A stretch of DNA of 58,048 nucleotides, the filler included, from Squatina squatina (lineage: Eukaryota): assembly GCA_031763465.1 (NCBI GenBank). It is 3 parts of 3 records of this genome, joined end to end, with 100 filler letters (N's around TTAATTAATTAA, not from the genome) between each part and the next. Parts side by side here need not be neighbours in the genome. Positions count along the whole stretch, not along the records: positions 19,461 to 41,607 come from JARFOE010000234.1; 2 more parts are not named here. The stretch is one strand, 5' to 3'. Below are positions 19,862 through 20,250 of the stretch, in pieces (positions within the stretch are counted from its first letter, which is position 1; each line of letters begins with the position of its first letter). The notes beneath the pieces were generated by a model that did not search any database, was not told where the DNA came from, and saw only the letters and a program-made list of their open reading frames with translations. The position numbers were made by a program, and so were the translations under genes.

Positions 19862-20250
19862 GAAATAAAAAAAAAATACTGGAAACACTCAGCAGGTCAG
19901 GCGGCATCTGCAGAGAAAGAAACAGAGTTAATGTTTCAGGTCGATGACCTTTTGTCAGAACTGGAAGAAATTAAGATTTAACAGTTTATAAGCGAGTACA
20001 GAGCCAGCAAAAGTGGGGGATGGTGGTGGTGGTGGGTGGGGGTGGCAGTGTACGTGGAGGAAAGATAGGTTGGAGGGCAGGAGTGATTAAATGGCAAAAG
20101 GGGGTGTTTGTAAACTGTTAAATCTCTATCTTCTTCCAGTTCTGATGAAAGATCATTGACATGAAATGTTGACTCTGTTTCTTTTTTCGCAGATGCTGCC
20201 TGACCTGTGGTGTGTTTCCAGGATTCTGTTTTTATATCAGATTTCCAGCT
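19862..20250. mobile_element. Non-autonomous Penelope-like element with inverted terminal repeats bearing hammerhead ribozyme cores
   Basis: 19862-19993 is the reverse complement of about 20106-20235. Each arm has a CTGANGA-stem-GAAA layout. Confidence 0.75.
20142..20170 (+). ncRNA. Decayed minimal hammerhead ribozyme motif
   Basis: CTGATGA-aagatcattgacat-GAAA-tgtt. The partner copy on the minus strand at about 19930-19958 reads CTGACAA-a-aggtc-atc-gacct-GAAA-catt. Confidence 0.6.

Follow-up and report, generated by a model that had tools for sequence, protein, structure and literature searches.

Head-to-head ends of a Penelope-like element with predicted dead hammerhead motifs in Squatina squatina

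The insert found at positions 19862-20271 of the analysed window, a 58,048-nucleotide stretch of Squatina squatina DNA, most probably consists of two 5'-truncated pLTRs of a Penelope-like element (PLE) coding for a reverse transcriptase (RT) and a GIY-YIG endonuclease (EN). In this reading, to which we assign a probability of about 0.88, the two copies lie head-to-head within a 10-bp target duplication, likely stem from a single target-primed event, and carry hammerheads that are predicted to be dead. The locus itself is an ordinary fossil insertion: decayed, lineage-restricted, of known shape and with a known RNA motif. The family behind it is useful as material: it occupies at least 15,064 places in the genome, its natural copies include intact hammerheads with three versions of stem II, and the distributions of its ends bear on PLE priming and on the purpose of the hammerhead.

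Architecture and genomic setting of the insert

A self-comparison within the window aligns the inverted arms (19862-19991 and 20108-20238) over 131 columns at 82.4% complementarity (E 3e-32), in agreement with the arms of about 130 nt in the original prediction. Nine of the 25 substitutions separating the two arms are of the CpG type, which confirms the CpG decay that had also been proposed. As RNA, a 437-nt stretch over the locus folds into one hairpin of -194.9 kcal/mol (z -14.6), and 0 of 100 shuffles were equally low.

For comparison with the family, a majority sequence of 889 nt was built from 57 loci, with positions numbered q. Alignment to this consensus changes the outline of the insert (Table 1). 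Its size is 410 bp, and it does not end at 20250 as had been stated. What had been described as a G-rich spacer between the arms is in fact the left arm itself, which continues to about 20103 through a pyrimidine-rich stretch with a local (GGT)n-like expansion. The head-to-head junction lies near 20104, with the 3' ends of both arms pointing outward; here, q626 is joined to q720 with no palindrome and no clear microhomology. Roughly six departures from the family consensus are common to both arms, so that the arms come from one subfamily or one template. At the left end, the arm shares microhomology with the target duplication, so that the match of the latter continues as far as 19866. The chance level for such a duplication was set by control pairs, of which 3 of 1218 had a longest common substring (LCS) of at least 10.

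Table 1. Features of the insert and of related fragments within the window.
Feature	Position	Strand	State or basis
GIY-YIG fragment, same family, other stretch of the pack	760..870	+	92% to consensus q179-289; Pfam GIY-YIG E 0.036, below cut-off
RT C-terminal fragment, same family (G000:C80)	12100..12265	-	L088 and L094 connect the RT piece to the same endonuclease
Left target-site duplication TTCAGCTATG	19851..19860	+	second copy at 20272; repeat search 16 nt, 94%
Left arm, PLE 3' end (consensus q626-856), inner 3' end, without tail	19862..20103	-	86% over q693-856, 90% over q627-665
Left minimal hammerhead	19926..19962	-	stems I and II intact; G8 -> A; helix III palindrome broken (C-A)
TATA-like box, 29 nt upstream of initiator-like site at first base of stem I	19985..19991	-	sequence; family 5' ends cluster at q753-764
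Pyrimidine-rich stretch between ORF stop and hammerhead, in left arm	20024..20103	-	consensus alignment
Right arm, PLE 3' end (consensus about q720-889), outer 3' end, with tail	20104..20271	+	85% over q728-889
Right minimal hammerhead	20138..20174	+	core boxes intact; stem II 2/5 pairs broken; helix III U-G, not C-G
Optional PLE tail of about 33 nt, right arm only	20239..20271	+	consensus alignment; family 3' ends bimodal
Right target-site duplication, 10 bp	20272..20281	+	repeat comparison; empty site in run X1
pLTR stub, same family (q780-854), without 5' half of hammerhead	41797..41871	+	93% to consensus

The window packs together three stretches, which meet at the joints 19361-19460 and 41608-41707; the insert sits in the middle one. 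In the assembly, it maps to G000:C234 at 5.193 Mb, mid-way along a 10.8-Mb contig. The third stretch holds a large FAT-type cadherin exon (43814-47186, minus strand) and a follistatin/osteonectin (SPARC-like) exon (57648-58025, plus strand), both recognised by Pfam, a combination that fits the SPARC-FAT2 neighbourhood. The FAT-type exon maps to G000:C46 at 0.86 Mb and the RT fragment to C80. With the insert on C234 and the FAT exon on C46, the proposal that the minus-arm core is transcribed in FAT2 pre-mRNA falls away. The search of 222 kb of C234, about 100 kb to either side of the insert, identified no host gene, the long frames giving nothing recognisable. A crude splice-site scan of the same 222 kb returned 17 candidates; a small exon would be compatible with this search, as would a very long intron. 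Among RNA runs, none was listed as containing the stretch, which does not bear on expression in either direction. An exon-like stretch in the right flank (20708-20839) was dropped, having no Pfam match and frame-breaking indels in relatives, and is likely non-coding.

Several other repeats were observed along the way. The 222 kb contain six insertions of the family, among them two small head-to-head pairs less than 60 kb from the insert (L074, G000:C234:5249476-5249633, and L071, at 5217192). In the third stretch, the pLTR stub is antisense to the FAT exon, from which it lies about 2 kb downstream. The first stretch closes with a tandem array (18955-19242) of 4-5 copies of 63-66-nt units, 62-89% alike, and positions 19470-19590 form the end of another very high-copy repeat with tens of thousands of matching contigs, likely a LINE/SINE 3' end.

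The insertion site was compared in sequencing runs of four other organisms (X1, X5, X8 and X14). In the relatives, the flanks are about 95% alike on the right (20290-21170) and 85-90% on the left. A contig from X1 joins 19596-19866 to 20290-21170 with 8 letters between them, versus 423 here, which is an empty site by coordinates; the 421-bp offset predicts 2 letters, and six more were found. Contigs from X5, on the other hand, enter the insert from either side (up to 19871 on the left, from 20247 on the right), and this organism likely carries it.

The parent element family

A genome search gave 6,626 candidate places for the family, and an 18-mer taken from it has 15,064 exact matches in the genome against 0 for the control. 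Since just 1 of 23 ORF-selected copies retains the 18-mer unaltered, the family is likely several times larger than 15,064.

The majority sequence runs from a C-x4-C-x2-C linker through a GIY-YIG ORF with its stop at q496 and a pyrimidine-rich stretch to the hammerhead (q754-790, with C3 at q758), and ends at q889. Walking upstream from the endonuclease reaches RT sequence in two loci, L088 and L094. The most complete copy is L233, a locus of 3,165 nt without N, which comprises an inverted tailed pLTR, RT motifs, the linker, GIY-YIG, a degenerate hammerhead and a tail-less 3' end. More specifically, L233:100-2883 (G000:C318936) is a near-full-length decayed copy with the inverted tailed pLTR at its 5' end. 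It is flanked by a 34-bp duplication (30 of 34 matching), far longer than the 8-13 bp found elsewhere. The longest frame of L233 matches nine proteins of 664-1027 aa among 1,661 candidates, the best of which is an 892-aa protein with RVT_1 and GIY-YIG (E 1e-46). Pfam searches with single decayed copies stayed below cut-off (GIY-YIG at best 22.2 versus 22.6 bits; RVT_1 E 0.13), and a PDB search with the RT piece at E 10 returned 0 matches. An RT together with a C-terminal GIY-YIG in one element is thus found in the family, in L233, but not in the truncated copy at the locus.

On this linkage to RT and GIY-YIG, the arms are assigned as 3' ends (pLTRs) of an autonomous-type, RT- and GIY-YIG-coding PLE. 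The PLE origin in the original prediction stands, whereas the non-autonomous element it envisaged does not: the arms are 5'-truncated ends of an RT+EN-coding element. The GIY-YIG (760-870) and RT (12100-12265) fragments to which it pointed are real and belong to the same family; however, they sit in a separate stretch of the pack, so their co-occurrence with the insert in the window says nothing. The linker finger is seen in the majority sequence, L038, L233 and L238. A CX2-5CxxC finger between RT and EN marks Neptune and Nematis but not Poseidon, according to the available text of PMC8557442, and the linker therefore points to one of the former two. None of the loci retrieved has an upstream pLTR in direct orientation that runs into the ORF start, the assembly breaking at these repeats, and the ORF start was likewise not found in them.

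The 5' ends of the family were studied in an independent set, for which the first 21.6 Mb of contig C1 supplied 100 copies in genome order. Of these, 42 end at an assembly gap, 9 extend by more than 130 nt, and 49 are resolved and short. Twenty-seven of the 49 resolved ends fall within q753-764 (p 7e-16 when a uniform distribution is taken as a crude null). In the left arm, the corresponding place has a motif that we take to be TATA-like and a site that we take to be initiator-like. From these we infer a promoter in the pLTR, with an RNA start that would lie at the first base of stem I. A second peak of 5' ends at the cut site is unsupported, with 2 of the 12 resolved ends downstream of the main peak at q786-788 (p 0.21). 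Just past the cut site, family q787-811 (20171-20196 on the plus strand here) contains what we take to be a 3' splice acceptor-like stretch, with a branch-like TTAAC, a pyrimidine tract and CAG, followed by an ATG; it may mark the end of an intron and the start of the ORF.

The dominance of pLTR-only short copies, more than half of whose resolved 5' ends share that 12-nt window, could also suit a distinct non-autonomous ribozyme element, MITE-like or retrozyme-like, moving as a fixed hairpin unit. Non-autonomous hammerhead-bearing PLE derivatives have indeed been reported, one cartilaginous fish among their hosts, and the available text of the preprint concerned (bioRxiv 10.64898/2026.07.22.740005) reports both retrozymes and PLEs for such a fish. 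A fixed unit, however, should recur. The junction of our locus is not shared by any second copy, the inner ends of inverted pairs differ at every locus, and both arms at such length were present in 0 of the 28 other best-matching loci. Furthermore, copies run continuously into GIY-YIG and RT, and no tandem arrays of the kind expected of a retrozyme were seen. We thus consider such an element very improbable.

Hammerhead motifs at the locus and across the family

Both arms contain the core motifs at the predicted coordinates. On the minus arm, these are CTGACAA (19958-19952), a stem II with 5 of 5 pairs, and GAAA-CATT from 19937; on the plus arm, CTGATGA (20142-20148), a stem II with 3 of 5 pairs, and GAAA-TGTT (20163-20170). 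Stem I (AGTT/AACT), absent from the earlier description, is present as well. That description had stem III replaced by a short palindrome: a palindrome does stand in place of helix III, but the helix that would form in a dimer is ACGT (A15.1-C-G-U16.1), followed by U at H17.

Neither local copy has an intact core, stems and palindrome together. On the left, G8 has become A and the palindrome is broken to C-A, both by CpG decay. On the right, stem II and the palindrome are damaged, and the hammerhead fold amounts to +0.8 kcal/mol, compared with -6.5 for the ancestral form. G8 is essential for hammerhead cleavage. In the Poseidon element of Anolis (PAc), a G8C change abolishes it, according to the available text of PMC11167929. 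Both local cores are therefore likely dead, judging by their sequence, in line with the inactivity suspected at the outset. A role for the inverted pair as a dimer is not supported: in the text available of PMC4209133 and PMC6765202, the dimer model for minimal hammerheads requires two copies on the same strand, and since the cores here lie on opposite strands, they cannot dimerise in cis at the locus.

Across the family, the motif is well defined. Across the 55 copies that cover it, each core position and both stems, I and II, have the hammerhead state in the majority, and most of the loss falls at three CpGs. At position N7, 26 copies have C and 25 have T, and A replaces G8 in 14; these counts give CTGACGA as the ancestral core, matching the ancestor proposed from the two arms. 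At the palindromic 15.2-16.2 pair standing in place of helix III, C is kept in 42 of 55 copies and G in 34 of 55, the remainder being mostly CpG decay. By our criteria, the hammerhead is intact in 7 of the 31 copies selected by their arms and in 2 of the 24 selected by their ORF. In the genome as a whole, the core pattern has 7,183 matches versus 277 for the reversed control, a 26-fold excess. The columns and the pattern counts bear out a minimal type I hammerhead, and the family ancestor is predicted to carry one, with CUGANGA, GAAA, UH and stems I and II.

An alignment for covariation combined the two arms with 20 of 30 pattern-selected C1 copies; the other 10, mostly short or gapped before stem I, were dropped. 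Here, 97% of stem cells are paired, the first pair of stem II being A-U in 8, G-U in 7 and G-C in 6 of the 22 sequences, and stem I varies between U-A and U-G. Natural copies with an intact motif represent all three variants, for example L112 (G-U), L113 (A-U) and L114 (G-C). The covariation signal is slight: two-sided changes affect 2 pairs, a level reached by 39 of 500 shuffles in a sample of related copies chosen for their intact core. At minimum energy, the ancestral 45-mer adopts a different hairpin (-11.7) and not the hammerhead fold (-6.5), and a co-fold of two copies did not return the dimeric hammerhead.

Could the hammerhead be a chance resemblance within a repeat? The ribozyme label comes from sequence, and an Rfam search at E 10 found no hammerhead at the locus or in five other family copies. 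This blank counts for little because minimal hammerheads lack helix III. The published consensus is matched at all core positions, in both stems, by the additional base following A9 and by the palindromic 15.2-16.2 pair, at the place expected in a pLTR; the pattern is in large excess over its control, and the first pair of stem II is kept across subfamilies. We give chance hardly any credence.

The decay of the core in genomic copies is indistinguishable from neutral. Among ORF-selected copies, changes other than CpG decay affect 15 of 273 core positions versus 75 of 888 positions downstream (Fisher p 0.12, not significant), and 14 of 27 copies retain the CpG of helix III, a share similar to that of CpGs in the ORF. 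This also speaks against a co-opted host element, that is, an intronic ribozyme or an editing or dsRNA structure regulating a host gene. Although a strong hairpin would form on read-through and the right flank is highly alike in relatives, the locus lies outside FAT, the insert is missing from at least one relative, and both cores are damaged. The probability of co-option is, in our estimate, next to negligible.

Insertion route and relation to known systems

Inverted pairs recur in the family with a preferred orientation. Neighbouring copies in 116 loci comprise 18 head-to-head arrangements (including this locus; L105 is an overlap artefact) versus 1 tail-to-tail. In the independent C1 set, an inverted arm lies upstream in 17 of 100 copies and downstream in 2 of 100. 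The 3' ends are bimodal: out of 87, 52 lie at q845-860 and lack the tail, and 27 lie at or beyond q884 and include it. From 240 loci, 25 pairs were collected, of which 4 touch a gap; the other 21 comprise 14 with a tail on one arm, 4 symmetric and 3 unclassed. A one-arm tail is thus seen in 14 of 18 classed pairs (binomial 0.015, calculated by hand with p 0.5). Target duplications of 10 and 13 bp were found at L008 and L045. Among solo copies, a duplication of at least 8 nt was found in 4 of 25, most being without a clear one.

We tentatively propose, at somewhat less than even odds, that head-to-head pairs record one protein dimer priming both staggered-cut ends at two sites of the RNA, this RNA being copied without prior cleavage and having the ribozyme at its very 5' end. 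In the mechanism favoured for the insert itself, the element protein would make cuts about 10 bp apart in the two target strands, and reverse transcription would be primed from each target end on element RNA, once at the outer RT start site, yielding the tail, and once at the inner site. At our locus, the two cDNAs would have stopped after about 170 and 240 nt and then been joined. Both arms cross the cleavage site, which means that the RNA templates were uncut there, and both start upstream of the hammerhead (q720 and q626), so they were copied from a downstream pLTR. In an active element, the hammerhead would sit at the inferred RNA start, just behind the TATA and initiator motifs, and would cut weakly, either when tandem copies on one strand pair as a dimer or when assisted by protein. 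Read-through RNA at the present locus would contain only one sense core, buried in a 130-bp duplex, and the decay here looks neutral. For PAc, the available text of PMC11167929 shows that both target strands are cut and extended, that two RT start sites bound the tail and that the main template is RNA left uncut.

The same PLE could also have produced the hairpin within one cDNA synthesis, by fold-back self-priming or a template switch, without priming from both target ends. PMC3846280, in its available text, attributes head-to-head junctions to self-priming on the antisense template and favours palindromes at inverted junctions as the place of priming. In our data, junctions lie in or at palindromic parts of the hammerhead in L111, L121, L185 and L233, and the consensus departures shared by the two arms would suit a single template as well as a single subfamily. 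The junction at our locus has neither palindrome nor clear microhomology, however, and simple fold-back alone gives no explanation for the two different start sites at the outer ends in most classed pairs. We regard this route as rather unlikely, and the family data do not separate priming from both target ends from self-priming on an antisense template. If priming from both target ends is the correct reading, tens of thousands of fossil copies record the insertion mode of PLEs.

A GTTAAC palindrome (family q784-789) is centred on the predicted cut site; some subfamilies have GTTGAC instead. A junction at this position would therefore not prove cleavage, fold-back predicting the same junction. 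A small hairpin with arms starting at q787 and q791 was observed in L185 (G000:C1:11728462-11728534).

The hammerhead compares closely with the minimal hammerheads of metazoan PLE pLTRs shown in Fig. S3 of PMC4209133, which have the same type I order of CUGANGA with one extra base, stem II, GAAA, a palindromic CG, UH, a short stem I and a U-rich 5' flank. UH is UU here, as in several rows of that figure. The subfamily at our locus differs in having A-U at 10.1-11.1, compared with the usual G-C of minimal hammerheads, and its sister subfamilies have G-U and G-C. The available text of the same paper describes thousands of dispersed single motifs, as well as dual motifs 100-700 bp apart on opposite strands; the supplement file searched contains no cartilaginous fish. 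Among the openly accessible papers searched, none was listed that describes a shark PLE hammerhead family by sequence.

The architecture of the insert, in turn, resembles the published insertions of EN+ PLEs (PMC3846280; PMC8557442, in their available text), which share the head-to-head inverted pLTRs, a tail of 30-40 bp at one end, a 10-bp duplication and heavy 5' truncation; more specifically, a one-sided tail of 31 bp and duplications of 9-10 bp are reported. Our locus differs from these in that both arms end short of the ORF, so that only the hairpin is left. The animal non-LTR retrozymes of the preprint cited above are also hammerhead-bearing, pLTR-related and non-coding, but form head-to-tail tandem units, whereas the locus is an inverted pair with a unique junction. 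PAc (PMC11167929, available text) is alike in its two RT starts bounding the tail, the extension of both target strands, a protein-assisted hammerhead and an uncut RNA template. It belongs to a different clade, and its ORF starts at stem II, where the family core CTGACGA has no ATG.
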